DNA from: a virus
Reading direction: 5' to 3' (one strand)
IMG/VR virus record: IMGVR_UViG_3300045988_053149
Span: 1 to 35,877 of that record
DNA length: 35,877 nt
This document shows, piece by piece, positions 571 to 34,494 of this stretch; the first letter of the stretch is position 1, and each line of letters opens with the position of its first letter. Made by a program: the position numbers and the translations under genes. Under the pieces are notes generated by a model. It searched no databases. It saw only the letters and a program-made list of their open reading frames with translations, and was not told the DNA's origin.

Positions 571-571
571 T

Positions 572-892: not shown

Positions 893-932
893 TGTTTGCT
901 CCTTAATCACACGTAAAAACGTATAACGCTAT

Positions 933-1616: not shown

Positions 1617-1626
1617 TCTATCCCTC

Positions 1627-2631: not shown

Positions 2632-2646
2632 CAAATACCACCTCTC

Positions 2647-2988: not shown

Positions 2989-2999
2989 TCAAACACCCC

Positions 3000-3356: not shown

Positions 3357-4429
3357 ACCCACCTCGAAAAGTCCTCGACCTTGATTTCCGTGACGTTTCC
3401 GCGCCACGATATGGCGTTCTCGCCGACCTTCAGAGCCAAATCGGAGTAATCGCCGGTGACGCGCCGATTCATCAGGGTGTCACCATGGTACGCATTCATC
3501 TCGTCGGCGTCTATCGTGATATATCCACCGTCTATCGAGAATGACAGCACGGTGATTGCATTGATTGCAAGCTCGACGTTTCCGCTGCCGTGCACCGTGA
3601 CGGTCGGCCTTGACACGACGTTTCCGCGATTGGTCAGGGCGATTTGGTTGAAGCTGTTGCTCGCCATGGTAGCGCTCAACGTAAAATCTACCGAAGTGCC
3701 AGCTTTGATGTCGAGCCACAGCGCATCGTACGCGACGTTGGAATCTGCCGCTGCGGTTATCGTGGAATCGCCGTTGCTCTTCAGCTCCATATACGAACCG
3801 CCGAAAGACCTGTCATCCGAAGGGAACCCAGCGATAAGCCTTAACGCGCACCCAGCGGCGCTGCCGCTAGCCGAAGCCGTTAGAGTGTAGTTCCCAGAAA
3901 GTGACATGCTCTCGATTGGAACCTCTATATCGACGTCGCTCGTCGCCCTGCCAGACACCCTAATGCTGCCGCCGCTTGAAGTTGCTGTGATGCCGAACCT
4001 GCTAGCCGTCGAATCCTTGACGTGCATGAACTGGTTCACGATGTCGAAAGTCCTGTCAACCGCGTCGTACTTGAAGGGCTGCACGTGCATCTTGACCTTC
4101 GCCGTGCGGAACCGTATCAGGCGTTCGAAGTCGATTTGGTCGAGAATCTGGTAGCGGTAGTACTTGTCTGGCTCGTTGCCGAAAACGACCTCACCCTCCG
4201 AATCGAAGAAGGCGATTGCGTCGTCGGTGTCGAAGTCACCGTGAAGGCCGATGCTCACCTCCTTGTCGTAGGCTGCGTATCCCAGCTTCGTGACGATATC
4301 GCCGTCGCGCCCGTCGATTTCCTCTTTGCTCGTGCGCATCTTCGGCTTCGTAATCGGAGGAAGGGATTGGATTATCAAGCCTTTGACGTTCGTGCTCTTC
4401 TCGCCGTTCAATTCGATATAGCTAATCAT
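3353..4429 (-). CDS. Distal tail protein (Dit, phage tail family), enlarged form (358 aa)
   Basis: Lies immediately downstream of the tape measure. The N-terminus MISYIELNGEKSTNVKGLIIQSLPPITKPKMRTSKEEIDGRDGDI is typical of Sipho_tail/Dit. About 100 extra residues suggest an inserted domain. Confidence 0.75.
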   Translation of the reverse strand: MISYIELNGEKSTNVKGLIIQSLPPITKPKMRTSKEEIDGRDGDIVTKLGYAAYDKEVSIGLHGDFDTDDAIAFFDSEGEVVFGNEPDKYYRYQILDQIDFERLIRFRTAKVKMHVQPFKYDAVDRTFDIVNQFMHVKDSTASRFGITATSSGGSIRVSGRATSDVDIEVPIESMSLSGNYTLTASASGSAAGCALRLIAGFPSDDRSFGGSYMELKSNGDSTITAAADSNVAYDALWLDIKAGTSVDFTLSATMASNSFNQIALTNRGNVVSRPTVTVHGSGNVELAINAITVLSFSIDGGYITIDADEMNAYHGDTLMNRRVTGDYSDLALKVGENAISWRGNVTEIKVEDFSRWV

Positions 4430-4440
4430 GTAAACACCCC

Positions 4441-6990
4441 CTATGCGTAAATCGCGTTCGCGACAGTGCGCTCCACGAACTTGCCGGCCACCTCGTCATC
4501 GAGCACGATGTGGACGCGCTCAAGGGCTTCGACAACCGCGTCAACCACGCTGGAATTGGCGACCGTCCCGGCTGCGGAATAGCCGCTGTAGGCAATCTGC
4601 TGGTCGCTCACGAAAGCCGAAGGGTCGGGCATGGCGTCCTGCATCTGACCGACAACGCTTCCAATCTCGTCGGTGAAGCCCTCGCCGATGCCTTGGGCGA
4701 TGTACTTGCCTACTTGGTCGCGGAACAGCCGTGAAGGCGAGTGGATGCCGAGGGCGTTCTTCATTCCGTCGAGGATGCCAGACGCAAAGCTCTTCACCTT
4801 GCCAGCCAGCCATCCAGCAGCTCCGCTGATACCGTTCCAGATACCGTGCACGATGTCGGAGCCGATGCTGAGCACGCGCCCGGGGAGCGAAGCCAGCCCG
4901 TTGACCACCGCGTTGAACATGTTCCTTGCGCCCTGTGCGCCCTTCGACGCCATCTGCCCAGCCCAAGAACCGAGGTTCGAGATGACGTTGCCAAGGAAGC
5001 TCGCGATGCGCCCGGGCAGCTGCGAGATGAAGTTGATTGCGTTGCTCAGGAACTGCGAGCCAGCACGCGAAGCGTTGGATGCCATGTTCGAGACCCAGCC
5101 AACGACGTTTGAAATGACGTTGCTCAGGAAGCTCGCGACGTTCGCGGGCAGGTTCTGGATGAAAGTCTCGACATTGTGGACGAATTGCGAACCCGCGATT
5201 GCTGCGTTGCTCGCCATGTACGAAACCCAATCTGTAACCGTGTCAATGACGCCGTTGAGCCAGTCGGAGAACATCTGCGGCAGCTGCGAGATTGTGGTGC
5301 CGAGGTTAGAGAAGAAGTCCCCGATTGCCTGGACCGCATTGCCGATGAAGTCCTTGACGCCATTCCACACGTTCGCCACGGCGTCGCGGAAGCCCTCGTT
5401 GGTGTTCCAGAGCACGACGATGCCTGCGACCAATGCGGCGATTGCGGCGACCGCAAGGCCGATAGGGGACGAGAGCTGCGCGGCATTGAGAAGCCGCTGT
5501 GCGACTGTCATTCCCTCGGTCGCGGTCTTCCAGCTCTTGAACGCAGTGACTAGCGCTTCGACTTTCTGCGCGACCATGATGGTGCCCAACGCTGTGGAGA
5601 TTCCCGCCAGCAGCGGAGCTATCGTCGGCAAGTTGTCCTTCAGCCACGATATGCCTTTCTTGATTGGCGGGATGACCTTTGAAACGCCGTCGCTGATTGA
5701 GTTGATGAAGCCGGTCACGTTCTCACTGCCGATTGCATCGTAAATCTGCATCAGGCCATCAGTGACAGCCGCCTGCATGTTTCCCATCGCGCCCTCGAAA
5801 GTTGACGTTGAAGTGGCGGCCTGCTGGGCGGCGTCGGTGAAGCCCAAATCCATGATTGCCTGATTGAATTCATCGGCTGTAATCTGGCCCTGTGCCATAG
5901 CGTCGCGGAAATTCCCCGTGTATGCGCCGTTCTTCTGCAACGCTTCTTGCAGCTTGCCGGACGCGCCGGGAATCGCGTCAGCCATTTGGTTCCAGTTCTC
6001 CGTCGTGAGCTTGCCAGCACCAGCCGTCTGCGTTAACACCATCGCCACGCTCTTGAACGTGTCGGCGTTGCCGCCAGCGACTGCGTTCAGGTTGCCAGCG
6101 GCCTGCGTCAGACCCGTGTAGTCCTGAATGCCGTTGGCAGCGAGCTGCGCGGTCGTGTTGGCAACCGTGTCGAGGTCGTACACCGTCTGGTCGGCGTACG
6201 TCTTCATGTCATCCTTTGCCTTTGCGATTGTCGAATCGTCGTAACCCGCGAAGCTCATGGTCGATTCGAACTTCTTCAGAGCATCGGAGGAGTTGATTGC
6301 TTCGCCCACAAGGCTCTGCACGCCGTTTATTGCCGACGTGATGATGTTGCCGGCGAGGTTTGCGATAGCGCCCTTCAGGACGGTGAATCCGCCCTCGGCA
6401 CTGCGTGCCTTATCGCCAGCGTCCTCGACGGCTTTGCCTAGCTTCTCGCTCGAATCGGACGATTTCCCCATCTGCGATTCGAGGTCTTTGATGTCGGCTT
6501 TCGTCTTGTTGATGTCCGTCTGTGCGCTGTTCATCTGCGTGCGCATACGCGACATGGAGCGCTCGTTCTGGTCGTTGGCGAGCGTCGATTTCTCGACCTG
6601 CTCCTTCAGGTTCGCGACCACTTCAGCTTGCTGCTTGTACTCGGTCGAAGACGTTCCCAGCTCTCGCCCGATGCGCTCAAGCTCGGATTTCTCCTTGTTG
6701 TACGAGGCGACCAGCTGCTCGTGCTTCTCCTTGTTCTGCTGGTACTCGCTGCCCATCTTCTCGTACTGCTCGCGGAGAACCGAAAGCTTCGACTTCTGCT
6801 CTTCGAGCCGATGTGTTAGCGCCGACTGCTTGGCGGTCAGCGCTTCGATGCTCGTGTCGTTCTTGTCGTACTGCGAGGACACGAGCTTGAGTTCGGACGA
6901 AACTTCCTTCAGGTTCTGCGAGATGTTGCGCAATGCGGCGCGGTACTCTGATTCGCCCGTGAGCTTGACCGCGCCACCGAAACTTGCCAT
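4441..6990 (-). CDS. Tail tape measure protein (849 aa)
   Basis: Follows the G/T chaperones. It has a coiled-coil N-terminus, hydrophobic central segments, internal repeats (LPANVASFLSNVISNVVGWVSNMAS / LPGRIASFLGNVISNLGSWAGQMAS) and a GIHSPSRLFRD motif near the C-terminus. Confidence 0.9.
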   Translation of the reverse strand: MASFGGAVKLTGESEYRAALRNISQNLKEVSSELKLVSSQYDKNDTSIEALTAKQSALTHRLEEQKSKLSVLREQYEKMGSEYQQNKEKHEQLVASYNKEKSELERIGRELGTSSTEYKQQAEVVANLKEQVEKSTLANDQNERSMSRMRTQMNSAQTDINKTKADIKDLESQMGKSSDSSEKLGKAVEDAGDKARSAEGGFTVLKGAIANLAGNIITSAINGVQSLVGEAINSSDALKKFESTMSFAGYDDSTIAKAKDDMKTYADQTVYDLDTVANTTAQLAANGIQDYTGLTQAAGNLNAVAGGNADTFKSVAMVLTQTAGAGKLTTENWNQMADAIPGASGKLQEALQKNGAYTGNFRDAMAQGQITADEFNQAIMDLGFTDAAQQAATSTSTFEGAMGNMQAAVTDGLMQIYDAIGSENVTGFINSISDGVSKVIPPIKKGISWLKDNLPTIAPLLAGISTALGTIMVAQKVEALVTAFKSWKTATEGMTVAQRLLNAAQLSSPIGLAVAAIAALVAGIVVLWNTNEGFRDAVANVWNGVKDFIGNAVQAIGDFFSNLGTTISQLPQMFSDWLNGVIDTVTDWVSYMASNAAIAGSQFVHNVETFIQNLPANVASFLSNVISNVVGWVSNMASNASRAGSQFLSNAINFISQLPGRIASFLGNVISNLGSWAGQMASKGAQGARNMFNAVVNGLASLPGRVLSIGSDIVHGIWNGISGAAGWLAGKVKSFASGILDGMKNALGIHSPSRLFRDQVGKYIAQGIGEGFTDEIGSVVGQMQDAMPDPSAFVSDQQIAYSGYSAAGTVANSSVVDAVVEALERVHIVLDDEVAGKFVERTVANAIYA

Positions 6991-7005
6991 AGAATCACCC
7001 CCTGT

Positions 7006-8603: not shown

Positions 8604-9023
8604 TCACCCCTTCGGCAGGTACTTGTCCTGCACCTTTTTCATAGCCGATTCAATCTCGCTGCTCACGAAGCTGCGGCGCATGAACGGGTGCTTCGGATAC
8701 GGCGAGTTGCTGCGCCCGTACTCGAAAAGGTTGCAGACCAAGGGCGCGGGCGTTTCCGTCCCGTCCTCGTTTTTGAAGTACCCGTAGAAAGCGACCTTGG
8801 TGGCAACGCCGTCATCGGACGGCGTTTTGTACGAGCGCGTCAGCTTCAGGCACTTCATGATGCCCGATTTTCGGAAACTTGCGGGGACGTTGGCCTTGAC
8901 GTTCGCCAATACCTTTTTAGCCCCCTCGCGCGTCATCTCCTTCAGCATCGTGTCCGTGTTCTTGTCAAGATACTCGAACTGCTCCATAAGCTCGGTCGGA
9001 AGTTGCTCATCGAATGATGCCAT
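8604..9023 (-). CDS. HK97 gp10-family head-tail joining protein (139 aa)
   Basis: The ATG at 9023 overlaps the upstream TGA (TGATG), with GAGGAGGTGA 5 nt upstream. MASFDEQLPTELMEQFEYLDKNTDTMLKEMTREGAKKVLANVKANVP resembles gp10-type proteins. Confidence 0.6.
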   Translation of the reverse strand: MASFDEQLPTELMEQFEYLDKNTDTMLKEMTREGAKKVLANVKANVPASFRKSGIMKCLKLTRSYKTPSDDGVATKVAFYGYFKNEDGTETPAPLVCNLFEYGRSNSPYPKHPFMRRSFVSSEIESAMKKVQDKYLPKG

Positions 9024-9688
9024 CAGTGCGTCACCTCCTCTATGTATTTGAAATGATACCACTTGCTATGCTTGCGTTCACCTCTAGCAACCGCAGAGAC
9101 GTTGCCTTGCGACAACCCAAGCGCTTTTGCTGCTTCTGTTGCGCTTACGAAAGTTTCACCAGTCTCGACGCACAGCACATGTTTGCAAAGCTTGCCGCGC
9201 TTATGCGCTTCGCTCATTTTGCGCCTTGTTTCTTCTGACACGGTTTTGCCGTACATCGGGTTTTTAGCGCCTTTATGCAATTCGCTCAGCTTGCGCTTTG
9301 TTTCTGCCGTGTGGTGCTTGCCAAGCCAAGGCGCTACATCTTTGCGCCGACCTTTTAGCGACTTTCTTATTTTGCGCTTAGTCTCTTCTGACATTTTGCC
9401 TGACGAATTTCCGCCATGCTCGACGTTGTAACCATGGGCTTTTTCGTCGCTGTGGTATTGCGCTATAAGCTCCATTTCCTTACGTTCAGCTTCCTCTTTA
9501 CTCAAGCCGACGAAGAGTATTTCATGCTTGAAGTTGTCCCAACCATACTTGCGGATAGCATTCATAAAGTATGGCTGGCGCTTGTACCCATAGCCGTTGT
9601 TCCAGCGTCTCTCAGGCTCCATAGACGTTATGCCTATGTAGACTTTGCCATTTGGCGCGGTGTGTCTGTATACGGTGTATCTCTGCAT
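9023..9688 (-). CDS. Free-standing GIY-YIG homing endonuclease with NUMOD3-type repeats and a C-terminal HTH (221 aa)
   Basis: YTVYRHTAPNGKVYIGIT...RRWNNGYGY...KYGWDNFKHEIL...YNVEHGGN, repeated (S/T)EETKRKI(R/S)..LKG motifs, and a C-terminal VETGETFVSATEAAKALGLSQGNVSAVARG. GC is visibly lower than in the flanking genes. Confidence 0.85.
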   Translation of the reverse strand: MQRYTVYRHTAPNGKVYIGITSMEPERRWNNGYGYKRQPYFMNAIRKYGWDNFKHEILFVGLSKEEAERKEMELIAQYHSDEKAHGYNVEHGGNSSGKMSEETKRKIRKSLKGRRKDVAPWLGKHHTAETKRKLSELHKGAKNPMYGKTVSEETRRKMSEAHKRGKLCKHVLCVETGETFVSATEAAKALGLSQGNVSAVARGERKHSKWYHFKYIEEVTH

Positions 9689-13566: not shown

Positions 13567-15258
13567 CTAGATAACCTGAATCGTGAAGTCGGGCATTTGC
13601 CCGAAAACCACGTCCTGCTGCAACAAGTATACGGCGTTGATGAGCGAGACGACCATATCGACCTTTCCCTTGCTCTTCTTCTTGTGGACGTACATGTTGC
13701 GGTTGGTGTCGTAGCTGCAACGCGCGTTCTGGAAGTTGATTTCCAGCAGCTTGTTGTCGGTGTACTCGAACTCGCCGCACAGAATCTTTTCTTTCAGCAG
13801 CTTGATCGGCGGATGGAGCACGCTCGAATGCTGCCTGATTTCGACGGTGTTGTACCCTGCGCCTTCCAACTTCTGCGCAGTGCTGAGCGCGTTCCAGCGG
13901 TCGTAGCCGATTGCCTGAACCTGCACGCCGTACTTGTCCTCGATGCCGAGAATGAAGTCCTCGACCACCTTGTAATCGATAACCCTGTCACCGCACGCGA
14001 TGCACTTTCCGGCACGGATGAACTCGTTGTAGTCGATTTTCTCGTAGGCGTTCTTCTCGGTGATTCGGCCTTCAGGAACGAATGCGAACACGTCCGCGAG
14101 GATGTTGCCGTCATCGTCTGCCGCCACCATAGCGACTGAGGTGTTGTCGTTCGTCTCAGACAAGTCCAATCCGAGATACACCACGCGCCCGCGCCAGTCG
14201 ATGTTCGCCACCTTGCAAGACTGCACGTCCGCGACGTCGATGAACGTCTCGGTGCCCTGACCCTGATAGATGATGTTGCAGTGCTTGGTCAGGAAGTTCT
14301 CGCGTGCCGATTCCACCGCGATTGCGTAGGCTCGTTTCTTCTTCAGGTCTTCCCAGATTTCGGGAATCTCCAAACTCACGGGGTTGGCGTGGCGCATGAC
14401 CAAATCGTCGGTCATCCAGTCCTTCGTATCGTCAGGCTCGTAGAGCAGCGCGAACAGCGTATCGTCCTCTGCGATGCCATCGAGAACCTTCTTGGCGTAT
14501 GCGACCTCGTCCTCGAAAGGATTGTCTATCGTCGGGTACTTGGTGCTGATGATGAAGCCGAGCTTGTTCAAGATGTTCAACTGGCCAGACTTCATCGCTT
14601 CCACCGCGTAGCTCGTCGGCAGCGCCCCTACCTCGTCGGCGCAGAAGGCGCTCGGAAGCCGGCCATCCATTCGAGACGTTGAATAGCTCAAGGGAACGTA
14701 CGTCGAGCTTTTCGGTATGAACGTGATGGACGGATTGATAATCTTGAATCGCTTGTTGCCCTTGTACTCGTAGACCAGTGGGGACGAGCGCAGCGTCTGC
14801 GATATTGCTTCGCGAATCTGCTTTGACAACGCCCCGTCTGGCGCGACTGAGAAGAACTCCGCGAATCGCGGCTCGGTAAGCATGAGGATGATGAAGATGG
14901 TCGCTACCGTGTACGTCTTGAAGTTCTTACGCGCGATTTCAAGCAGCCCGATTTCGTAACGTCGCTTCTCGGGATTGTCTCGGTAGACGGTGCAGAGCAC
15001 GGCGATGTAGAGCAGCCATTGGTAACCCGTCGTGCACTCATAGAGCGTCTGTCCAGCCTTCAGGCCCTTCGGCATGACGAGCAGCTTCAGGATTGATTCG
15101 ACCTGTTGAATCTTGGCTTCGCTGACGAAATACTTCTCGCTCTTGCCCTCGCAGACGTCCATCCATAGGCGCATCTGTTTTTTAACGTACTTGGGGCAAG
15201 CTTGTTTTTCGTAGCTTTCCTGACAGAATTTATAAGCTTTGTTATCTTTTATATTCAA
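13567..15258 (-). CDS. terL: Terminase large subunit (Terminase_1 / HK97 gp2-like, 563 aa)
   Basis: LLEIARKNFKTYT aligns with the HK97 TerL Walker A region SIARKNGKT. C-terminal nuclease-type motifs are present (VYLGLDLSETNDNTSVAMV). The position is upstream of the portal. Confidence 0.9.
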   Translation of the reverse strand: MNIKDNKAYKFCQESYEKQACPKYVKKQMRLWMDVCEGKSEKYFVSEAKIQQVESILKLLVMPKGLKAGQTLYECTTGYQWLLYIAVLCTVYRDNPEKRRYEIGLLEIARKNFKTYTVATIFIILMLTEPRFAEFFSVAPDGALSKQIREAISQTLRSSPLVYEYKGNKRFKIINPSITFIPKSSTYVPLSYSTSRMDGRLPSAFCADEVGALPTSYAVEAMKSGQLNILNKLGFIISTKYPTIDNPFEDEVAYAKKVLDGIAEDDTLFALLYEPDDTKDWMTDDLVMRHANPVSLEIPEIWEDLKKKRAYAIAVESARENFLTKHCNIIYQGQGTETFIDVADVQSCKVANIDWRGRVVYLGLDLSETNDNTSVAMVAADDDGNILADVFAFVPEGRITEKNAYEKIDYNEFIRAGKCIACGDRVIDYKVVEDFILGIEDKYGVQVQAIGYDRWNALSTAQKLEGAGYNTVEIRQHSSVLHPPIKLLKEKILCGEFEYTDNKLLEINFQNARCSYDTNRNMYVHKKKSKGKVDMVVSLINAVYLLQQDVVFGQMPDFTIQVI

Positions 15259-15853
15259 ACTTCATCCCCCTTGTCTGCGAATATTCCCCCTTGAGAACCC
15301 TTGATATACCAGCCCTGTCGCACCCAGTGACGCGCGACGCTTCTCTTATGCTGTAAAACTCTTCGCCTGTGTTTACGCATACGATGGAGGTTCCCACTGC
15401 GGCACGTTGCTCGACGCTCCAATGCCTGCCCTTCATCGGCGATTTGCGACCCTTTAGCTTTTCACTTATCGCCCGCTTTTCCTCTTCTGTGTGTTTTCTT
15501 CTGTTCGGGCATTTGCGTCCCTTTAGAGCCTTACTGATTTTTGCGCGCGTCTCTTCTGACATCTTCGGAGTATTGCCGCCGCGCTCGATGTTGTACCCTT
15601 TCTCAGGGTTGGTGCTGTCGTACTTTTTTATAAGCTCTATTTCCTTGTTCTCTGCGTCCTCGCGGGAAAGGCCATCGCATAGAACCTCATGCTTTATGTT
15701 GTCCCACCCGTATTTGGCTATTGCGCTGTTGAAATGCGTGCTGTTCTTATAGTTCCTGCCACCTTGCCACCGTCTTTCAACGCCAAGCTTCGTAATGCCT
15801 ATATACACTTTGCCTGATGGCGATGTGTGCTTATACACGGTATAGGATTCCAT
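15242..15853 (-). CDS. Free-standing GIY-YIG homing endonuclease, paralog of 9023..9688 (203 aa)
   Basis: The ATG at 15853 follows GAAAGGAG. YTVYKHTSPSGKVYIGIT...RRWQGGRNY...KYGWDNIKHEVL...YNIERGGN, plus NUMOD3-like repeats and a C-terminal VNTGEEFYSIREASRVTGCDRAGISRVLKG. Its 3' end overlaps the terL start. Confidence 0.85.
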   Translation of the reverse strand: MESYTVYKHTSPSGKVYIGITKLGVERRWQGGRNYKNSTHFNSAIAKYGWDNIKHEVLCDGLSREDAENKEIELIKKYDSTNPEKGYNIERGGNTPKMSEETRAKISKALKGRKCPNRRKHTEEEKRAISEKLKGRKSPMKGRHWSVEQRAAVGTSIVCVNTGEEFYSIREASRVTGCDRAGISRVLKGEYSQTRGMKFEYKR

Positions 15854-15946
15854 GATTTGCTCCTTTCTACCGTGCATTATACACCACCTTTCACATACTT
15901 CGGTGTGGTTTCCGCGTCGATTGCAGCCTTGCAGTATTCGTAACCC

Positions 15947-16318
15947 CTATTCCTCGCCATCGCTGTCACCGTTGATTATCGCCATGAGCGGGTCGTAATC
16001 CGAATCGCGTTCCTCGTCCTCCTTGGCGAATCCCTTGATAATCTTCATCAGTGTCGTTACGGTGCGGTTTGCGCTGTCCGTGGTCTTGTTGTACTCCGTG
16101 ACCGCTGGGTTTACGTAGATGTTCGCGCGGCCCTTCACGTATTCCTTCGTAACGAGCGTGCCAGTCTCGCGGATTGCCGCTTCCAGCTCCGTGAGGTTGT
16201 TGAGCTGAACCTGATACCGCTTGAACGTAGTCATGAAGAAGAAGTTGGTCTGTACGCCCGTCTCTTCGGCGATTTTCAGGATTTCCTGCGCCTGCTCGTT
16301 GAGTGTTTTCTTTGCCAT
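15947..16318 (-). CDS. terS: Terminase small subunit, P27 family (123 aa)
   Basis: The pattern FKRYQVQLNNLTELEAAIRETGTLVTKEYVKGRANIYVNPAVTEYNKTTD is typical of P27-type TerS. An HNH endonuclease is encoded upstream, as is usual for this type. Confidence 0.7.
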   Translation of the reverse strand: MAKKTLNEQAQEILKIAEETGVQTNFFFMTTFKRYQVQLNNLTELEAAIRETGTLVTKEYVKGRANIYVNPAVTEYNKTTDSANRTVTTLMKIIKGFAKEDEERDSDYDPLMAIINGDSDGEE

Positions 16319-16324
16319 GCTCCG

Positions 16325-17173
16325 CTACCTCCGTTTTCTGTATCTATCGCTGATAATCTTCGGCGTGCACGCGTTCCAGTTTACACGATGGTGCATTCGC
16401 CTGTGGTGCGCCCCCATCTCGGCCACCTTCACGGCCTGCGGCGAGAATATGACGCTATAGAACGACTTGACGTATGTGCCGCTATCGAGGTACATCTCGG
16501 ACATTCCACCAGCCTGCGATTGTGTTCCTTGCTGACAAATCTGCGTGTTGGTAATCGTGAGGAACAGCCCGCCCTTGTTCCCAAGGCTCGTGTACGTGTT
16601 GACGTCCTCGTTGACCCTACCGACGAACCAGAACCGCCTTGAGGTCTTGCAGAAAAAGGTGTTCATTGCCTTGCGAGAAAGACCCTTATGGAAGAAATTG
16701 TTCGCACCACCGATGAGGTCACCGCCCTGCGCAAGCGCGATGGAAAGCGCACCGCTCGAATCAAGGAACTCGATACAATCCTCGAACAGCCTATCGAGGT
16801 CTTTGCAATCGGTGTGCTTGAGCTGTGCACCAGAAATGTACCTGAACATGAACGCGGTGTAGTCATCGTCGAGTTCGAGGAAGTATTCTAAACCCAACTT
16901 CTCGGCGAGTTCGAAACAGACGTTGCGAGCGTAGACGATTGCTCGCCTGTCCTCCGATAGGTCTGCTGTGTCGAACTTCTTGGACTCTGCAAGTTTGTCG
17001 AACTGAATCACCTTGTCGCCGTACAGCTCTCGATACCTGTCTGCCGTGTCATCCTCGTTGTCAATGACGATATAGAGCTTGCCAGTGTAGTTCCCCATAT
17101 TCAGAGCACGGAGCGTCTTGATGTTGTCAGGCCTGCCGTGCGTGAGGATGAATACTTCAAAATCACTTCGCAT
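16325..17173 (-). CDS. Putative GT-A-fold nucleotide-sugar transferase, paralog 2 (282 aa)
   Basis: MRSDFEVFILTHGRPDN...KLYIVIDNEDD...YARNVCFELAEKLGLEYFLELDDDY shows alternating beta/alpha segments ending in a DxD-type DDD near residue 100. It is clearly paralogous to 17163..18005. Confidence 0.45.
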   Translation of the reverse strand: MRSDFEVFILTHGRPDNIKTLRALNMGNYTGKLYIVIDNEDDTADRYRELYGDKVIQFDKLAESKKFDTADLSEDRRAIVYARNVCFELAEKLGLEYFLELDDDYTAFMFRYISGAQLKHTDCKDLDRLFEDCIEFLDSSGALSIALAQGGDLIGGANNFFHKGLSRKAMNTFFCKTSRRFWFVGRVNEDVNTYTSLGNKGGLFLTITNTQICQQGTQSQAGGMSEMYLDSGTYVKSFYSVIFSPQAVKVAEMGAHHRRMHHRVNWNACTPKIISDRYRKRR

Positions 17174-18005
17174 TCTTGCGCCACCTCCCGCTGAGAATCT
17201 TCGGATACATGAGGGCCTTGCTCTTCCTCAGACTTGTGCCGTCCTTGCTGACGATGATTCTCAGGCTGCTCGGGTCGATTATCACGGAATAGAAGTCGCA
17301 CACGTACTGCTTGTTGTCATCGTACAAGCCGTGCAGTCCTCCTTCGTTCGTTCCGCGCTGCGGAGTGCTCTTCGTTATCGCGTAAGCTTCGAGCATGACC
17401 TGCCCAGCGTCCTTGCCCAGCAGAAGCGCGTTCATGTCCTCGTTGAGGATACCGACGAACTTGAGCCTGTCATCCGCGCGAACGACGAACGCCTGATTGA
17501 TGTTCCAGCACATGCCATTCCCATACACGCCTTGCAACCCGCCTATGAGCGCACCACTCGAAGCGATGTTGAGCGACGTGACTCCCGTAGTATCAAGGAA
17601 CCCCACCATTGACTCGAACAGCGCGTCGAAGTCGGTCACTGGTGCCGACATGAGCCTGCCGTCCCTGACGTACCTGAACGTGAACGAGCTGAGGTCATCG
17701 TCGAACATGGCGAAGTAGCTCAGGCCCAAATCGTCCGCGATGTCGTACGCGGCGTTCCTTGCGAACACGACGGAGCGAAGCTCGTCCTCGGTGGTCATGG
17801 TATCGACGCGCTTGGCGTACTCGCGTTTGTCGAACACGATTACGCTGTCGCCGTAAAGCCGTTCGTACTCATCCCTCTGCTCGTCGAGGTCATCTATTAC
17901 AAGGTAGACGTTGCCAGTGTATCCATGCTTCTCCAACTCGTGGAACGTCACTTGGTCGTGCGCCCTCCCGTGCGTGAGAATCAGCACGGCGAAGTCGCTA
18001 CGCAT
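17163..18005 (-). CDS. Putative GT-A-fold nucleotide-sugar transferase, paralog 1 (about 280 aa)
   Basis: MRSDFAVLILTHGRAHD...NVYLVIDDLDE...FARNAAYDIADDLGLSYFAMFDDDL has the same architecture as paralog 2. The ATG at 18005 overlaps the ParB-domain gene end. Confidence 0.45.
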   Translation of the reverse strand: MRSDFAVLILTHGRAHDQVTFHELEKHGYTGNVYLVIDDLDEQRDEYERLYGDSVIVFDKREYAKRVDTMTTEDELRSVVFARNAAYDIADDLGLSYFAMFDDDLSSFTFRYVRDGRLMSAPVTDFDALFESMVGFLDTTGVTSLNIASSGALIGGLQGVYGNGMCWNINQAFVVRADDRLKFVGILNEDMNALLLGKDAGQVMLEAYAITKSTPQRGTNEGGLHGLYDDNKQYVCDFYSVIIDPSSLRIIVSKDGTSLRKSKALMYPKILSGRWRKNAK

Positions 18006-18744
18006 CGTCTTCACCGCTCATGAAGTCGATGTCCTCGGTAAGCTTCGCGTATCCCTTGGCGATTGCATCATCAACGTCGATTATCACGAGCGCGGAGTCC
18101 TCCATAAGCTCCTGCATCTCGGGCGTCGCGTTAGCGTAGTATTCCGCGACCTTCTTGTAGTTGAATGCATAGTGTCTGGTTGCTGCCTTGATTAGAAACT
18201 CGCGCTCCTCGGGCGTGACGTTCGAATCCTGAATCCTCATGACAAGCTCGTTGGCCTTCGAATCGTCAACGAGTTCGTCAATGGAAGGGCACTCGCCGGT
18301 CGGCTCGTACTGCGGTATGTTCACCTTCTTGGTGTAGGTATCGTCCGCCTGCGGCTCGTCCTCTTCCAGCTCTTCGAAGTCGAAGCCGAAGTCGGTCATG
18401 TCGATATCGTCTATGCCCTCAAGCTCGATGCCAAGCTTCGCCATGTCCCACTGGGCAAGCTCGCCGGTCTTGTTGTCCGCGAGGCGGAACGCCTTCACCT
18501 GCTCGGGCGTCAAATCGTCCGCCACGATGACTGGCACCTGCTTGAGTCCGAGCTTGTGAGCGGCCTTGAGCCGAGTATGCCCGTTGATAATGACGTTCTC
18601 GCCGTCTACGACGATTGGAACCTTGAAACCGAACTCCTTGATGCTCGCCGCGACCGCATCCACCGCATTGTCGTTCAATCGCGGGTTGTTCGCGTACGGA
18701 ATGAGCGAATCAACGTCCATGTAGGTGACTTTTGTCTTGTCCAT
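17998..18744 (-). CDS. ParB/Srx N-terminal-domain protein (ParB-like nuclease domain, 248 aa) without a methyltransferase or canonical ParB HTH
   Basis: VDSLIPYANNPRLNDNAVDAVAASIKEFGFKVPIVVDGENVIINGHTRLKAAHKLGL contains the GxxRxxA box. It is followed by LTPEQVKAFRLADNK, as in phage ParB-methylase fusions. RBS is GAAAGGAG. Confidence 0.75.
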   Translation of the reverse strand: MDKTKVTYMDVDSLIPYANNPRLNDNAVDAVAASIKEFGFKVPIVVDGENVIINGHTRLKAAHKLGLKQVPVIVADDLTPEQVKAFRLADNKTGELAQWDMAKLGIELEGIDDIDMTDFGFDFEELEEDEPQADDTYTKKVNIPQYEPTGECPSIDELVDDSKANELVMRIQDSNVTPEEREFLIKAATRHYAFNYKKVAEYYANATPEMQELMEDSALVIIDVDDAIAKGYAKLTEDIDFMSGEDDA

Positions 18745-18973
18745 GCTTGAAAATCTCCTTTCTCAATACGTTCGAAGGCTCTATGGGGAAACTCTCGAAA
18801 GAATCCCCGATAATCGCCCTTATTGAATGATAATCGCAGTTTTAAGCCCAAAAACCGCCGTTTTCCAAAAAAGCCCAGCAGATAAAAGATTTAGTGTCCA
18901 GAGGGGGGCAGTCAGATAGCCCGCCCGTTCGGACGCTCCGACCCCATGGCAGGGGGGATTGTCTTTCAACAGG

Positions 18974-19366
18974 TTACCCTTCCGCATCTCGGCACGCAGC
19001 TCGCCTCTTCGCAGCCAGCCCACGTAGGTATGCTTTGCCAAGCTCGCCATCATCCGCCATCCTGTGGTGCATCCTACATAGGCACACGAGGTTATCGTCC
19101 TCTATCAACCCGTCCGGGTCTTCCCTCAGCTTCTCGATATGGTGAACCTCCAACCCATCGGTCGTTGCCTTCCCTTGGTCTCGGCATACCTCGCACATCC
19201 AGTGCGCATCGTCTCGCACCTGTAGGCTCTTCCTCTTCCACCTTGAGGTGAAGCGCAGCCTGTCCGCTCCCGTCCTCTCGTACCTGTATGTCGGCCTCTT
19301 CCTCGGGCACGGCTGGTCGTATGGGTGCATCTTCCCGCAGCGCGGGCACGCCCTGTATGCTCCCAT
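18974..19366 (-). CDS. HNH endonuclease (terminase-associated, about 130 aa)
   Basis: CEVCRDQG...LEVHHIEKLREDPDGLIEDDNLVCLCRMHH. The ATG at 19366 follows GGGAGGA. HNH with P27 TerS and HK97-type head genes is the usual cos-packaging set. Confidence 0.85.
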   Translation of the reverse strand: MGAYRACPRCGKMHPYDQPCPRKRPTYRYERTGADRLRFTSRWKRKSLQVRDDAHWMCEVCRDQGKATTDGLEVHHIEKLREDPDGLIEDDNLVCLCRMHHRMADDGELGKAYLRGLAAKRRAACRDAEG

Positions 19367-19447
19367 GTGCGTCCTCCCTTCAACCGGCAACGGGCCTCGC
19401 CGACTAGACGAGACCCGCTTCGTGGTCTTGCTCAGTTGTCTTGCTGC

Positions 19448-20413
19448 CTACACCTTCAGTGCGCCGCTTGCATCAGAACCCACGCCATACTGCATCTCGC
19501 CGTCCGCGCCGAAGGCATACCACTTTCCGCCGATGCTCTCGACATCAGCCGCGTGCATCGCTCCCGTTTCCGGGTCCATGTAGTACCACTTGCCTCCATC
19601 TTGCACCCAGCCGGTGGCCATCGCGCCGGAATCGGTGAGGTAGTACCACTTGCCGCCGACCTGCTGCCATCCGGTCAGCATCCAGCCGTCAGCATCGAAG
19701 AGGTACCATTTGCCATCAATATGCTCCCATCCGCTCTTGGTATACGAGCCGTCTGCATGCCTGTACCACCAGCGGCCATCCTGCTTAATCCAGCCGGTCT
19801 GCTTGGCGCTGGCCGTTCCGACGTACCTCGCCCATCCATCGGCGTCCATGTAAGCCTTGTCTAGGTCTAGGTTGCCATTGTATCCCGCAAGCCTTCCGGT
19901 TGAACTGTACTGCCTGATAGCACAGTTATACGCGCCCTCGTTCCAAGGGCTGTCTTGGTATCCGGTGGGCTTTTTGTTCGCATACTGTGCGACCCATGCG
20001 CCGCAATTGAGAGCCTGCGCGACGTCCCACGGGAATGAGCCTGCGGGCGCGTAGATGAGCGGATTGACTCCCGTGCGGTCGATGACTCGCTGGACAAGCT
20101 GCTTGAGGTAGCCGGTGTTGCCCCACGCGGCGTTCTCCGCGCTCTCCCAGTCGATGCACGGGATGCCCTTGCCGAAGTATCCTGCGCAATGGTCGATGAA
20201 GAAGTCGGCTTCTGCCTGTGCTCCGCTGCCGTCCACGTAATGGTAGAAGCCGAACGGCTTGCCGAGGGCAATGGCCTGCTGAACCTGCGCGTCGCAGGCG
20301 TCAGAGACGAAATTCACGCCCTGCGTCGCCTTTACGATTACGAAATCACATGGAACCTTCGAGAGGTCGATTCCCGCCTGCCATCCGCTGATGTCGATTC
20401 CCTGCATTGCCAT
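19448..20413 (-). CDS. Endolysin: GH25 muramidase + C-terminal choline-binding-type (CW_binding_1) repeats (321 aa)
   Basis: GIDISGWQAGIDLSKVPCDFVIVKATQGVNFVSD...FGFYHY is a GH25 signature. The C-terminus has about 5-6 repeats of the GW..DGGKWYY...G.M.TGW type. Confidence 0.9.
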   Translation of the reverse strand: MAMQGIDISGWQAGIDLSKVPCDFVIVKATQGVNFVSDACDAQVQQAIALGKPFGFYHYVDGSGAQAEADFFIDHCAGYFGKGIPCIDWESAENAAWGNTGYLKQLVQRVIDRTGVNPLIYAPAGSFPWDVAQALNCGAWVAQYANKKPTGYQDSPWNEGAYNCAIRQYSSTGRLAGYNGNLDLDKAYMDADGWARYVGTASAKQTGWIKQDGRWWYRHADGSYTKSGWEHIDGKWYLFDADGWMLTGWQQVGGKWYYLTDSGAMATGWVQDGGKWYYMDPETGAMHAADVESIGGKWYAFGADGEMQYGVGSDASGALKV

Positions 20414-20415
20414 GT

Positions 20416-20649
20416 CTACTCGCTCCTTTCAGATACCTGCTTCGATGTTGCCGCGCTGACTCCAATCAGGGCACCGATAAGAACCCCTGTCGCGTTGAGC
20501 GTGAGCACGATTGCATCGACGTTCGGGATGCCCCACGCCGGGAAGACCGCGCCCACGAAAGTCGCGACTGCCGGGCATGCGATAAGCCCGAGCCATTTCA
20601 GCACGTGATACAGTTTGTCATTGATGATGTACTCTTTCATTCTTTCCAC
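20416..20649 (-). CDS. Holin (phage_holin_1 / phi LC3-like, 77 aa)
   Basis: DKLYHVLKWLGLIACPAVATFVGAVFPAWGIPNVDAIVLTLNATGVLIGALIGVS shows two transmembrane segments. It lies directly upstream of the lysin. Confidence 0.75.
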   Translation of the reverse strand: MERMKEYIINDKLYHVLKWLGLIACPAVATFVGAVFPAWGIPNVDAIVLTLNATGVLIGALIGVSAATSKQVSERSE

Positions 20650-22252: not shown

Positions 22253-22510
22253 TCATTCACGGTCGAACATCCCTTCCCAGTCGTCGCATGTCTCGTTCCA
22301 TTGCCGTATGACATCTAGAGTCAGCTGCAGGTCGCTCGGGCGACACGCCTTGGCGAGCGGCCCGGTGAGTACATAGTCGTGTTGTGCGTAGATGTTGCAC
22401 TCCTTGCAGACGACTATCGCTGACAGGGTACGGTTCAGGTAGTCCTCGTTTATCCCGATGCGCAGGTGCTCGGTCGAATGGCACTTCGGACACGGCTTCA
22501 TGGTCGTCAT
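22253..22510 (-). CDS. Lar-family restriction-alleviation-like zinc-ribbon protein (85 aa)
   Basis: MKPCPKCHS...VVCKECNIYAQ...VIRQWNE shows two CxxC pairs and a terminal WN motif, as in Lar-family proteins. Confidence 0.5.
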   Translation of the reverse strand: MTTMKPCPKCHSTEHLRIGINEDYLNRTLSAIVVCKECNIYAQHDYVLTGPLAKACRPSDLQLTLDVIRQWNETCDDWEGMFDRE

Positions 22511-26720: not shown

Positions 26721-27042
26721 TGTGATTGATAAATGCCATCAGCTTTTTTTTCATCTTGTACTCGGGCGTTTTGAAGCCCTTGCAGTCCTCGACTACCACC
26801 TTGCCGTCTCGGTAGTAGACGAAGTCGGCGATGTACCTCATGCCACGGTATTTCACGCCGTCGCACTCAAAGCTCGGCAGAATCTCGAAGGACACCTGAA
26901 GGCGAAGCCCATGAATCCTTCCAGCTTCCTGCATGTCGCGGAGCTTGACGTATCGCTTCGCCTCCTTGGCGCTGTCGAACTCGATGCCGTCAACGACCGT
27001 CTTCTTCGCGTGGTACTTACCTCCCCGTGCTGCCATAGCCAT
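26701..27042 (-). CDS. DUF1064-family protein (putative resolvase-like nuclease fold, 113 aa)
   Basis: GGKYHAKKTVVDGIEFDSAKEAKRYVKLRDMQEAGRIHGLRLQVSFEILP...YIADFVYYRDGKVVVEDCKGFKTPEYKMKKKL matches the DUF1064 pattern. The ATG at 27042 follows GGAGAGGGG. Confidence 0.7.
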   Translation of the reverse strand: MAMAARGGKYHAKKTVVDGIEFDSAKEAKRYVKLRDMQEAGRIHGLRLQVSFEILPSFECDGVKYRGMRYIADFVYYRDGKVVVEDCKGFKTPEYKMKKKLMAFINHINIEES

Positions 27043-27427
27043 TGTCGCCCCTCTCCGAGTCATCGAGCTCTTCGACGCGCTCGAAACCAACGTAGGCGCA
27101 CGGTATGATAACGAGCTGCGTAATCTTGTCACCGCGCAGAACGTGATATGGCGCGTTGCTATAGTTGTAGAGCTTGACCTTGATTGCCCCCGTGTAGCCC
27201 TCGTCTATGACCTCCTCGGACGTAATGCCGTGCTTTACGTTCAGCCCCGACTTGCTCTTGAGCATACCGACGTAGCCGTGCGGCAGCTGGATGTGAACGC
27301 CAGTGTCGATTACGCGAGAACCCCTCGCTGGAACCATCGCGTCAACCGGCGAGCGCAGGTCTGCCCCCGCGTCCGTCTCATGCGCCCTTACTGGCATGAA
27401 TGCCCATGAGTCTAGCTTAATCTTCAC
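27017..27427 (-). CDS. dut: dUTP diphosphatase (trimeric dUTPase, about 136 aa)
   Basis: RAHETDAGADLRS...GYVGMLKSKSGL...IDEGYTGAIKVKLYN...GDKITQLVI...RGDNGYGSTGR covers the dUTPase motifs. The GTG at 27427 follows GGGAGGGA. Confidence 0.85.
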   Translation of the reverse strand: MKIKLDSWAFMPVRAHETDAGADLRSPVDAMVPARGSRVIDTGVHIQLPHGYVGMLKSKSGLNVKHGITSEEVIDEGYTGAIKVKLYNYSNAPYHVLRGDKITQLVIIPCAYVGFERVEELDDSERGDNGYGSTGR

Positions 27428-27644
27428 GCTCGTCCCTCCCGAAGCTGTATCGTGCGTACCTGACCTTCTGACCGTATCTGTTGAATGCATGCTCTCGCTC
27501 CTTGTGGATGTCGTGCCCATCGTCCCTGAGCGCGAACACGACAGCTGCGAGCCTCGTTATTCCCAAGTCCCTGAACGCATCGACAGGCGTGATGCTGCCG
27601 AACTCGCGTATGTAGTCAAGAACCATCTGCTTTTTACTCGCCAT
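27417..27644 (-). CDS. Small winged-helix DNA-binding-like protein (75 aa)
   Basis: MASKKQMVLDYIREFGSITPVDAFRDLGITRLAAVVFALRDDGHDI. The assignment is tentative. Confidence 0.4.
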   Translation of the reverse strand: MASKKQMVLDYIREFGSITPVDAFRDLGITRLAAVVFALRDDGHDIHKEREHAFNRYGQKVRYARYSFGRDERED

Positions 27645-34479: not shown

Positions 34480-34494
34480 TCGATTTCCCCCTTC

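Follow-up and report, generated by a model that had tools for sequence, protein, structure and literature searches.

Organization of the locus

The window (the whole 35,877-nt stretch of viral DNA that was analyzed) comes from a temperate phage in which a small ParB-like partner gene and two genes for TET-associated glycosyltransferases (TAGTs) lie immediately ahead of the DNA-packaging genes, all on the minus strand. The name TAGT reportedly stems from Iyer et al. in 2013. The partner gene (positions 17998 to 18744; 248 amino acids [aa]) encodes a ParB/Srx-like N-terminal domain, a disordered acidic linker, and a conserved C-terminal domain (CTD). It is followed by TAGT-B (17163 to 18005; 280 aa), a divergent, partner-proximal GT-A glycosyltransferase paralog, and by TAGT-A (16325 to 17173; 282 aa), a canonical member of a widespread partner-linked clade. 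Upstream lies the gene for a packaging-associated HNH endonuclease (18974 to 19390; Pfam HNH, E=1.6e-4; PHROG 144, E=1.1e-17). Downstream are the genes for the small terminase subunit (terS, 15947 to 16318; a weak Terminase_4 match, E=1.4e-3, with PHROG 13845 and PHROG 5110) and the large subunit (terL, 13567 to 15258; TerL_nuclease, E=9.6e-42; TerL_ATPase, E=3.2e-9).

The first-pass annotation described three translationally coupled genes between the HNH gene and terS, and the coordinates bear this out. The end of the partner gene runs 8 nt into TAGT-B (ATGCGTAG), the end of TAGT-B runs 11 nt into TAGT-A, and the TAGT-A stop is followed after 6 nt by the terS ATG. Both paralogous open reading frames (ORFs) exist as described, but the start of the upstream one is most likely the ATG at 18005 (MRSDF, 280 aa), as in its orthologs, and not the GTG at 18014.

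A 229-nt intergenic region (18745 to 18973, minus strand) precedes the module and carries the ribosome binding site AAGGAGA before the ParB ATG. The only repeats in it are weak (GATAATCGC, twice), and it has a single terminator-like hairpin; compared with shuffled expectation, nothing in this region stood out convincingly as a parS-like or cos-like repeat, a promoter, or a terminator. A late promoter or cos site possibly lies within it. The earlier proposal that these are the first genes after cos has an analogy: the linear record of Lactobacillus delbrueckii phage phiLdb opens, at its left end, with the ParB and TAGT genes.

No match to the region turned up by megablast among 50,697 phage records, and the region is therefore without a close annotated relative; a genome-contig scan using TAGT-B alone likewise returned no relative. 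Choline-binding repeats of the lysin and the metagenome sources suggest gut Clostridia as hosts.

The two transferases

Both paralogs match Pfam PF20691 (TET-associated glycosyltransferase; cutoff, 27.5 bits) well above threshold, TAGT-A over the full profile (129.7 bits, E=1.8e-37) and TAGT-B with 90.6 bits (E=1.8e-25). Both also match PHROG 842 (E=6e-72 and E=3.5e-42, respectively). They are 39% identical over their full lengths (E=2e-63), open with MRSDF.V.ILTHGR, and carry LELDDDY or AMFDDDL at residues 100 to 106, as the first-pass annotation had noticed when it likened their layout to that of GT-A enzymes and TAGTs. D102-D103-D104 is kept in all sequences of alignments A1 and A4, D38 and D41 are invariant, and E189/D190 is invariant or nearly so, the TAGT-B lineage included.

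The AF2 model of TAGT-A (pLDDT, 88.7; pTM, 0.88) has a GT-A fold. Foldseek searches with this model, a check proposed at the outset, retrieved GT-A enzymes from the PDB (SpsA, GnT-I, K4CP, LARGE1, and ColGalT1 at E=5e-5 to 1e-3; also SunS, ThuS, protein O-glycosyltransferases, RmlT, and polysaccharide synthases), a list that is generic for the GT-A fold and without specific signal. Against BFVD, the model matched TAGT proteins at TM 0.87 to 0.89 and the beta-glucosyl-HMC-alpha-glucosyltransferase of a T4-like Klebsiella phage at TM 0.64 (E=1.3e-8). A profile search of PDB sequences with the TAGT alignment gave no meaningful match (gp54, at an E of about 0.08, is noise); the PF20691 TAGT family has no solved structure. 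By its 39% identity to TAGT-A, TAGT-B would also be a GT-A enzyme.

The TAGT-B lineage is rare, with about 12 ortholog clusters at ≥73% identity. It retains HGR, D38, D41, DDD102-104, E189/D190, and GG222-223 and has conserved motifs of its own. A reading of TAGT-B as a degenerate pseudo-enzyme was rejected, as the lineage keeps the catalytic acidic residues together with its own constrained motifs.

The partner protein

The first gene had been read as encoding a ParB/Srx-domain protein lacking a methylase, and this agrees with a Pfam ParB_N match (PF02195 superfamily; 31.3 bits versus a cutoff of 26.3), a PHROG 620 match over residues 2 to 237 (E=2.5e-65), and the absence of any methyltransferase Pfam match. 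The ParB/Srx-like nucleotide-binding domain spans residues 1 to 120 (18385 to 18744, minus strand), and the protein contains NGHTRLKAA and LTPEQVKAFRLADNK. Foldseek with the AF2 model (mean pLDDT, 73.7) retrieved ParB, Noc, KorB, SerK, and Srx, the ParB domain dominating whole-model matches, and phmmer matched Noc and ParB structures. R22 (NNPR), R58 (GHTR), and N91 (DNK), equivalents of phosphate-binding residues, are invariant in alignment A3. In the Noc alignment, NNPR lies opposite FQPR and GHTR opposite GERR, so the Gln and Glu of canonical ParB CTP hydrolysis are Asn and His in the partner protein. Nucleotide binding by this domain is therefore plausible on sequence grounds, and hydrolysis is doubtful.

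With a pI of 4.2 and a net charge of −30, the partner protein is highly acidic, and a Pfam scan of it found no helix-turn-helix (HTH), ParB C-terminal domain, or other DNA-binding family beyond ParB_N. The notion of ParB-guided targeting through DNA binding is consequently unsupported. The activator role shown for ParB with phage thymine dioxygenases (PMC13229309) is a better analogy than a DNA-binding guide. No ParA-type ATPase was found among the window ORFs scanned. A partition function for the gene was ruled out: ParA, HTH, and parS are all missing, and the gene sits in a late operon.

The CTD (residues 137 to 248; 18001 to 18336, minus strand) is an acidic domain of ~110 aa that is not covered by any Pfam family. 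Its invariant motif YTxKxNIPQYExTGE, a stretch of low model confidence that is probably disordered, precedes a four-helix unit, and the motifs are conserved in alignment A3; helices at residues 162 to 216 are modeled with a pLDDT of 82 to 95. A CTD search of 1.84 billion representatives yielded 1158 clusters at 50% identity (E≤1e-3). In about 80% of loci the partner has a fused ParB/Srx domain, and in 20 loci it consists of the CTD alone; in one locus (L030) the CTD is fused in frame to TAGT. The invariant element coupled to TAGT is therefore the CTD and not the ParB/Srx domain, to which the first-pass annotation had attached the linkage.

Distribution and obligate pairing

In all 124 evaluable loci, TAGT lies directly beside a partner gene that encodes the CTD, and in most of those inspected the stop codon of one gene overlaps the start codon of the other, which answers the earlier call for a study of co-occurrence with glycosyltransferase genes in other phages. 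Carriers of the pair span Firmicutes, Bacteroidota, other phyla, a haloarchaeal virus (HHTV-2), and the ynaK prophages of Escherichia coli, and their terminase, portal, and capsid types vary. Recurrence of the same gene pair in >120 independent loci puts it far outside what chance would give. Nor is the arrangement rare, as thousands of other phages carry it: databases hold >7,600 TAGT homologs, and 1580 of 5426 complete E. coli genomes (about 29%) have prophages with the pair. This is a very large class without prior characterization; no functional literature on ynaK or ydaY was found, nor any on DNA modification in HHTV-2.

Usually the terminase genes come directly after the module, with several small genes in between in HHTV-2. 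The pair also occurs between PolA and a beta-clamp-like gene and between primase and helicase; in PolA-type and jumbo Vibrio phages it is inside the replication module and not the structural module. Directly downstream of TAGT, some relatives carry a GalE equivalog (339 bits) and some a sugar-1-phosphate nucleotidyltransferase. A radical-SAM gene adjoins TAGT in 13 related loci and is absent from the window and most loci. Some dairy Lactobacillus phages have a frameshifted or degraded TAGT, which is therefore dispensable in culture; an intact pair is present in L. gasseri phi jlb1, for example, and in HHTV-2.

Missing acceptor chemistry

As first noted from the sequence, the window lacks recognizable enzymes for making a modified base. 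Pfam scans, which covered essentially every coding-strand ORF of about ≥85 aa, found no TET_JBP dioxygenase, thymidylate-synthase-like (dCMP/dUMP) hydroxymethylase, DNA methyltransferase, alpha-glucosyltransferase (alpha-GT), or beta-GT among window ORFs. Related loci inspected with Pfam annotation (~130, covering immediate neighbors and recurrent clusters for the dioxygenase census) contained no TET/JBP dioxygenase, dCMP/dUMP hydroxymethylase, or C5-methyltransferase. With no base-hydroxylating enzyme found, the chemistry known for PF20691 cannot run as described. No unannotated ORF in the early region of the window exceeds about 160 aa; the two that are longer, of 227 and 358 aa, sit in the tail module. 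The early regions of small temperate phages with the pair, which are fully visible, contain only replication and recombination genes.

Proposed function and alternatives

A partner-dependent glycosyltransferase module acting on phage DNA late in infection is proposed with moderate confidence. TAGT-A and TAGT-B would be metal-dependent GT-A enzymes using nucleotide sugars, and the acidic upstream protein their cognate partner, whose CTD would bind or activate the transferase. The ParB/Srx domain is probably nucleotide binding, may not hydrolyze, and could add regulation or access to double-stranded DNA (dsDNA), in parallel with the ParB-like proteins that activate a subclass of phage thymine dioxygenases. 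As the three genes form one translational unit with terS and terL, sugar would be added to newly replicated DNA just before or during packaging, the likely benefit being shielding from restriction or other DNA-targeting defenses. TAGT-A is the candidate for installing the first sugar because its form also occurs alone with the partner; TAGT-B might then lengthen or vary that sugar, much as a second glucose is added by the T2/T6 enzyme of this family.

This reading draws on the PF20691 matches with their DDD, HGR, and NED-type residues, the predicted GT-A fold, the DNA-acting members of the family, the obligate partner, the ParB precedent, the DNA-related genomic context, and the sugar-nucleotide enzymes beside TAGT in some relatives. 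Counting against a DNA module are the missing hydroxyl-acceptor enzyme, the acidic partner without a DNA-binding family, the distance from the T-even enzyme, and the dispensability of TAGT in culture. A bolder version, put forward tentatively and as unlikely to hold, is that a self-sufficient partner(CTD)-TAGT pair places sugar directly on a canonical DNA component (an exocyclic amine, ring atom, or backbone) with no prior hydroxymethylation. If true, a kind of DNA modification not known before would be at work in thousands of temperate phages that infect gut and environmental bacteria, in a haloarchaeal virus, and in the prophages of about 29% of complete E. coli genomes, and the tandem paralogs of the window would build a two-sugar or dual-site version.

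Other acceptors have to be weighed. The transferases might glycosylate a protein, either a virion protein of the same late operon, with whose structural genes coexpression is likely, or the partner itself, through YTxKxNIPQYExTGE as acceptor or recognition peptide; they would then resemble GT-A peptide glycosyltransferases encoded beside their substrates. The absence of a base-hydroxylating enzyme to create a DNA acceptor favors a protein, and the partner is an obligate neighbor whose most conserved stretch is probably disordered and contains Tyr and Thr. The peptide S-glycosyltransferases SunS and ThuS and protein O-glycosyltransferases are among the structural neighbors, but in a list generic for the fold. 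Moreover, characterized PF20691 members all act on DNA (PMC13216743; 10.1101/2023.12.21.572611), the pair lies inside the replication module in PolA-type and jumbo Vibrio phages, and the frequent fusion of ParB/Srx to the partner is best explained by a nucleic acid-related function, so that a protein target is considered improbable. An ordinary TET/TAGT-type pathway on a conventional 5-hydroxymethyl-pyrimidine, its precursor coming from an unrecognized enzyme (a divergent dioxygenase, another phage oxidizing enzyme, or a host function), is distinctly improbable. Phage-specific 5mYOX profiles do retrieve thousands of contigs that Pfam TET/JBP misses (PMC13229309), and a radical-SAM gene lies beside TAGT in 13 related loci. 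However, that gene is missing from the window and most loci, the early region of the window offers no unannotated ORF above about 160 aa (those of 227 and 358 aa being tail-module ORFs), and the visible early regions of small temperate phages are taken up by replication and recombination genes. A shared host-supplied precursor is unlikely because hosts span many phyla and one archaeon.

Prophage-encoded GT-A enzymes that alter surface glycans, such as TarP and the Gtr systems, exist, and RmlT, a wall-teichoic-acid rhamnosyltransferase, and polysaccharide synthases are structural neighbors of TAGT-A. The module could on this basis modify a host cell envelope polymer (wall teichoic acid or polysaccharide) for lysogenic conversion or superinfection exclusion, the ParB-like gene being an unrelated neighbor. 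This is very improbable: the genes are in a late lytic operon coupled to terS and not in a lysogeny or moron position, the obligate pairing (124 of 124 loci, plus one fusion) means that the partner is not an incidental neighbor, and the pair occurs in hosts with entirely different envelopes (Gram positive, Gram negative, and haloarchaeal).

Significance

"Solitary" TAGT homologs were flagged as unexplained in two recent papers (288 of 753 glycosyltransferase [GT]-encoding phage genomes; about 65% of GT contigs), and such orphan GT contigs were left aside as not obviously DNA related (PMC8256090; bioRxiv 10.1101/2023.12.21.572611). The TAGTs of at least one large clade are not solitary but are always accompanied by a dedicated CTD partner, and an acceptor-making enzyme is never beside that clade in the loci inspected. 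If the pair modifies DNA, it represents a new route to glycosylated DNA, with a bearing on restriction and CRISPR evasion, nanopore base calling of gut viromes, and enzymatic DNA-labeling tools, and it would add to an emerging view of ParB-like proteins as general adaptors for postreplicative DNA-modifying enzymes (methylases, dioxygenases, and now glycosyltransferases). If it does not, thousands of genes bear a misleading label in the name "TET-associated" and in the annotation "beta-glucosyl-HMC-alpha-glucosyltransferase", which has by now spread across phage genomes. The matter can be put to a direct test, given that E. coli prophages (ynaK locus) and cultured viruses of Lactobacillus and Haloarcula carry the pair.

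Comparison with known systems

The T2/T6 beta-glucosyl-HMC-alpha-glucosyltransferase, the founding characterized member of PF20691, adds glucose to glucosyl-5hmC (PMC13216743, PMC13390438). It shares the Pfam family, GT-A fold, and DxD motif with the TAGTs described here and is likewise a stand-alone, soluble protein of about 280 aa; it is also the second of two transferases (PMC13216743), which parallels the tandem paralogs. However, the T-even enzyme extends glucose already present on 5hmC: dCMP hydroxymethylase makes the base before replication and an alpha-GT adds the first sugar, and none of these genes is present here. A ParB/CTD partner is not described for the T-even enzyme, and tblastn found no connection between it and this TAGT clade at E≤0.01.

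Phage GT-A enzymes also glycosylate 5hmC in DNA (bioRxiv 10.1101/2023.12.21.572611). In the TET/5mYOX-linked clusters (Burke 2021, PMC8256090; Pyle 2023, bioRxiv 10.1101/2023.12.21.572611), phage transferases of the GT-A type modify DNA once it has been replicated. Their genes often have ParB-like, terminase, and endonuclease genes nearby, and clusters with several GTs give rise to di- or trisaccharides. Those clusters have their own 5mYOX dioxygenase, with or without a C5-methyltransferase, to provide 5hmC or 5hmU, whereas the window and 130-odd related loci were inspected without finding one.

Phage fusions of ParB to N6/N4 DNA methyltransferases (PHROG 498; PMC12704722) resemble the partner in their ParB domain, matched by partner residues 3 to 136 (E=2.4e-44), and in their position upstream of terminase genes in temperate phages of Gram-positive bacteria. 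Here, in contrast, the CTD follows the ParB domain, Pfam detects no methyltransferase domain, and the catalytic component is a glycosyltransferase with a translationally coupled gene of its own; the survey of ParB folds (PMC12704722) makes no mention of an association with glycosyltransferases.

The ParB-dependent phage thymine dioxygenases (O'Toole et al. 2026, PMC13229309) also have a ParB-like gene adjoining that of the DNA-modifying enzyme. The small ParB-like protein, with a nucleotide-binding domain and CTD and without a recognizable DNA-binding domain, activates phage 5mYOX on dsDNA; it is needed for this activity, in cognate pairs (PMC13229309). By its description, the thymine dioxygenase ParB fits the architecture of the partner protein (N-terminal nucleotide-binding domain, disordered linker, and CTD). 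The client here is a GT-A glycosyltransferase and not a 5-methylpyrimidine dioxygenase, and whereas ParB176 needs both domains (PMC13229309), the TAGT partner can be the CTD alone.

A glycosyltransferase pair coupled to a ParB-like gene

Both paralogs downstream of the ParB-like gene are TET-associated glycosyltransferases (TAGT; Pfam PF20691). TAGT-A and TAGT-B score 129.7 and 90.6 bits, respectively, against a curated threshold of 27.5 bits, both match PHROG 842 (annotated as beta-glucosyl-HMC-alpha-glucosyltransferase), and a full-length comparison of the two gives 39% identity. The AlphaFold2 model of TAGT-A, built with 36 homologs, was confident (pLDDT 88.7, pTM 0.88). Among solved structures it matched the GT-A-fold enzymes SpsA, GnT-I, chondroitin polymerase, LARGE1, ColGalT1, RmlT, and SunS (E values of 5e-5 to 1e-3; TM-scores of 0.35 to 0.5), and among predicted viral structures it matched TAGT-domain proteins (TM of 0.87 to 0.89). 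It also matched the beta-glucosyl-HMC-alpha-glucosyltransferase of a T4-like Klebsiella phage (E = 1.3e-8; TM of 0.64). The first-pass annotation of a ParB-domain protein followed by two GT-A transferases is upheld.

The TAGT-A and TAGT-B lineages share DDD (residues 102 to 104), D38, D41, HGR, and E189/D190. TAGT-A has a near-neutral charge and a basic C-terminal tail. The TAGT-B lineage is rare and divergent, with about 12 ortholog clusters at ≥73% identity and the next relative at 48%. It lacks QGGD, RK..MN, and the C-terminal HH...W.C, motifs almost invariant in A-type enzymes, and conserves SSGALIGG, PQRGTNxGGLHxLY, and LRKSKALxYPKI of its own. The sequence of TAGT-B indicates a putatively functional enzyme with an altered pocket; the pattern of motifs lost together with the conservation of lineage-specific ones argues against a pseudogene.

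The three genes and the surrounding lysis, HNH, and terminase genes are all minus-strand genes. In the direction of transcription, a small holin-like ORF (20416-20649), a GH25 lysin gene with choline-binding repeats (19448-20413), and an HNH endonuclease gene (18974-19390) are followed, after a 229-nt intergenic spacer (18745-18973), by the genes for the ParB-like protein (17998-18744), TAGT-B (17163-18005), TAGT-A (16325-17173), terS (15947-16318), a GIY-YIG/NUMOD homing endonuclease (15242-15877), and terL (13567-15258). The ParB stop and TAGT-B ATG overlap by 8 nt (GATGCGTAG) and the TAGT-B stop and TAGT-A ATG by 11 nt, both read directly from the sequence, which confirms the proposed translational coupling of the three genes. 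terS starts 6 nt past the TAGT-A stop, with a GGAGG within the TAGT-A 3' end. The ORF list offers an alternative GTG start for TAGT-B at 18014; orthologs are 280 aa long and begin MRSDF, which makes the ATG at 18005 the likely one.

The position of the lysis genes (19448-20649) upstream of HNH, terS, and terL (13567-19390) is a lambdoid-like late-operon order, found likewise in E. coli ynaK prophages. The homing endonuclease gene between terS and terL (15242-15877, minus strand) overlaps the terL start, and a second GIY-YIG/NUMOD-type gene lies within the head-tail block (9023-9688, minus strand). The HNH-ParB spacer contains a direct repeat, GATAATCGC, in two copies 20 nt apart (18809-18837), which may bind a regulator or the terminase or may have arisen by chance. 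Tail genes occupy both ends of the window (1-7000, with the tape measure gene at 4441-6990; 32725-35838, with Prophage_tail at 34495-35838), suggesting a circularly permuted or circular contig.

Pairing of TAGT and partner genes

Database homologs number at least 7,600 for TAGT-A and at least 7,900 for the ParB-like protein. The loci collected comprised 11 metagenomic loci found by exact-protein look-up, 80 from IMG/VR, and 39 from GTDB species genomes, plus annotated cultured phages, and the neighbor of each TAGT gene was recorded in a scripted census in which loci with adjoining sequence present were evaluable. The first reading had suggested a study of co-occurrence of this ParB type with glycosyltransferase genes in other phages. 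A homolog of the ParB-like protein (the partner) adjoins TAGT in 124/124 evaluable loci, and in most cases the stop codon of one gene overlaps the start codon of the next.

The partner takes several forms. Both domains are present in 100 of the 124 loci; 20 have only the C-terminal domain (CTD), as a protein of 120 to 150 aa matching residues ~122 to 246 of the window partner; one (L030) has an in-frame partner-TAGT fusion; and three have truncated or partial partners. The CTD is the invariant, true partner element. In some CTD-only loci the pair lies between genes for a family-A DNA polymerase and a beta-clamp-like protein, and one locus (L046) has two TAGT genes, each with its own CTD gene. 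Tandem TAGT genes occur in 13/132 loci; where these have a single partner gene, the divergent copy lies beside it and the A-type copy next, as in the window. The window module is one member of a very large class, here in its less common tandem form.

The fusion ORF (L030:9281-10849) encodes 522 aa, with the ParB-like partner at residues 21 to 235 and TAGT at 241 to 520 in frame, and reflects either a genuine fusion of the two genes or an indel introduced by sequencing. Two TAGT ORFs (L031:5203-5830 and L086:9443-10000) have in-frame N-terminal extensions of 185 to 208 aa that match no Pfam family; these may be an extra domain or an ORF continuing upstream of the true start. Some Lachnospiraceae-type phages (L005-L008:3787-8846) have three consecutive ParB_N-domain genes of 200, 500, and 258 aa, with a class I SAM methyltransferase gene between the second and third and TAGT paired only with the last, which suggests several ParB-client pairs per genome.

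The partner protein

The N terminus of the 248-aa partner is a ParB/Srx domain (Pfam ParB_N above threshold; PHROG 620, E = 2.5e-65), with structural matches to ParB, Noc, KorB, SerK, and sulfiredoxin. The phosphate-binding positions R22 (NNPR), R58 (GHTR), and N91 are invariant, and the canonical ParB CTP-hydrolysis residues align to Asn and His. A disordered acidic linker leads to a helical C-terminal unit modeled with confidence. This CTD matched no Pfam family and consists of four helices preceded by an invariant peptide, YTxKxNIPQYExTGE, in a stretch of low model confidence. A search with the CTD alone against 1.84 billion cluster representatives found 1158 clusters at E ≤ 1e-3; among the best 150 of these, about one-third are short stand-alone proteins and the others are the C termini of proteins of 240 to 340 aa.

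The whole partner is very acidic (pI 4.2; net charge of -30, with -16 for the CTD alone), which lends no support to the initial proposal of ParB-domain-guided DNA modification: the protein resembles one that partners the enzyme and not a DNA-binding guide.

Distribution

Prophages carrying the pair occur in Veillonella, Blautia, Oscillospiraceae, Bacteroides, Muribaculaceae, Dysgonomonas, Spirosoma, Acidobacteriota, and Saccharibacteria, among others. Among cultured viruses, the pair is present in Nocardia phage NTR1 and, as gp21/gp22 likewise with an 11-nt overlap, in the haloarchaeal virus HHTV-2. In 191-kb Vibrio phages TAGT lies between primase and helicase. The gene order in Lactobacillus gasseri phage phi jlb1 is late activator, ParB, TAGT, terS, terL. 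The pair is found in L. delbrueckii phages phiLdb, c5, and PMBT4 and forms the first two genes of the linear phiLdb record. The phiLdb TAGT gene (848-1713) is split by a frameshift, and the gene is partly degraded or nearly lost in Ld17, LL-Ku, and Ld25A; this damage in dairy phages implies that the module is dispensable in laboratory or dairy propagation.

The E. coli pair is part of a late operon of lambdoid type (Q, S, R, Rz, trkG, ParB, TAGT, terS, terL). Megablast located it in 1580/5426 complete genomes, with ≥80% coverage in 889. The partner gene, ynaK, is annotated "ParB/Srx family N-terminal domain-containing protein," and TAGT is annotated "hypothetical protein"; the E. coli and window partners are 40% identical over their full length, CTD included. 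Examples are Escherichia phage vB_EcoS-673R7 and E. coli NZ_CP023820.1 (1563269-1564985). Presumably only remnants survive in the Rac prophage of K-12 (a short ynaK and the pseudogene ydaY).

Acceptor, donor, and proposed function

Pfam scans of the window took in virtually every ORF of ~85 aa or longer on the coding strand and, in agreement with the first-pass annotation, detected no TET/JBP dioxygenase; nor did they detect a thymidylate synthase-like hydroxymethylase, DNA methyltransferase, alpha-GT, or beta-GT. Matches elsewhere were to a serine recombinase, a CI-like repressor, Gp157, a Rad52-like protein, SSB, dUTPase (27017-27520, minus strand), DUF1064, a DnaC-like ATPase, and standard head, tail, and lysis genes. 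Unannotated early-region ORFs are all ≤~160 aa, leaving little room there for a hidden dioxygenase, and the two unannotated ORFs that exceed this length, of 227 and 358 aa, are in the tail module. A tail-region protein has collagen triple-helix repeats (1627-2634, minus strand), and the product of 22253-22510 (minus strand) has a weak, subthreshold match to the Lar restriction alleviation family.

Two kinds of gene beside TAGT in relatives support genuine nucleotide-sugar chemistry with varied donors. A GalE equivalog lies directly 3' of TAGT in one phage (L088/L091:3087-4064; TIGR01179, 339 bits against a cutoff of 262 bits) and a sugar-1-phosphate nucleotidyltransferase gene in another (L010:7816-8634), which implies that sugar donors differ between phages. 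A radical-SAM enzyme of ~320 aa and unassignable subfamily is encoded directly 3' of TAGT in 13 related loci (among them L032, L043, L049, L050, L052, L057, L060, L061, L068, L073, L076, and L090, e.g., L090:10863-11825) and is absent from the window; it could modify the sugar donor or prepare the acceptor. In PolA-type phages, a protein of ~190 aa is encoded next to the CTD and TAGT genes (L036:7738-8298 and L040:6230-6820) and has a weak, subthreshold resemblance to P-loop nucleotide kinase 3 (E = 0.008). In known thymidine hypermodification pathways, 5-hydroxymethyluracil (5hmU) is a substrate of P-loop kinases.

The best-supported reading, in which we place about half of our confidence, is a DNA glycosylation module that is expressed late and depends on its partner. 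The CTD would bind or activate TAGT, and the optional ParB domain would place the enzyme under nucleotide-dependent control or give it access to duplex DNA. TAGT-A would add a sugar that TAGT-B extends or diversifies, with DNA being glycosylated shortly ahead of packaging or in the course of it. The weak point of this reading is chemical, because no enzyme makes a hydroxyl acceptor. Of three ways around this, direct glycosylation of a canonical DNA component by the pair seems unlikely, and supply of the acceptor by an unrecognized precursor step is more doubtful still. The third is an acceptor other than DNA. A protein acceptor, possibly the invariant peptide of the partner itself or a virion protein, is likewise an improbable solution, on a par with the canonical DNA component. 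An envelope polymer as the acceptor is very improbable, since obligate pairing, late-operon position, and the variety of host envelopes are hard to reconcile with it.

Relation to known systems

Among the members of PF20691 is the T2/T6 enzyme, which transfers a second glucose to alpha-glucosyl-5-hydroxymethylcytosine (5hmC) (PMC13216743, PMC13390438), and phage GT-A enzymes from TET-containing clusters glycosylate 5hmC in DNA (PMC8256090; bioRxiv 10.1101/2023.12.21.572611). In a survey from 2025, the usual fusion partners of phage ParB folds were methyltransferases or domains of unknown function, with no mention of glycosyltransferases (PMC12704722). We found neither a description of obligate CTD-TAGT pairing in the literature nor functional studies of ynaK. 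A subclass of phage thymine dioxygenases, reported in 2026, needs an adjacent ParB-like protein for activity on double-stranded DNA; the ParB-like protein combines a nucleotide-binding domain with a C-terminal domain and lacks a DNA-binding domain, and mutation of its putative NTP-binding residues had little effect (PMC13229309). New here are the TAGT-partner pairing rule, the identification of the CTD as the true partner, and a distribution that spans bacteria, an archaeal virus, and E. coli ynaK prophages, from which simple experiments follow.
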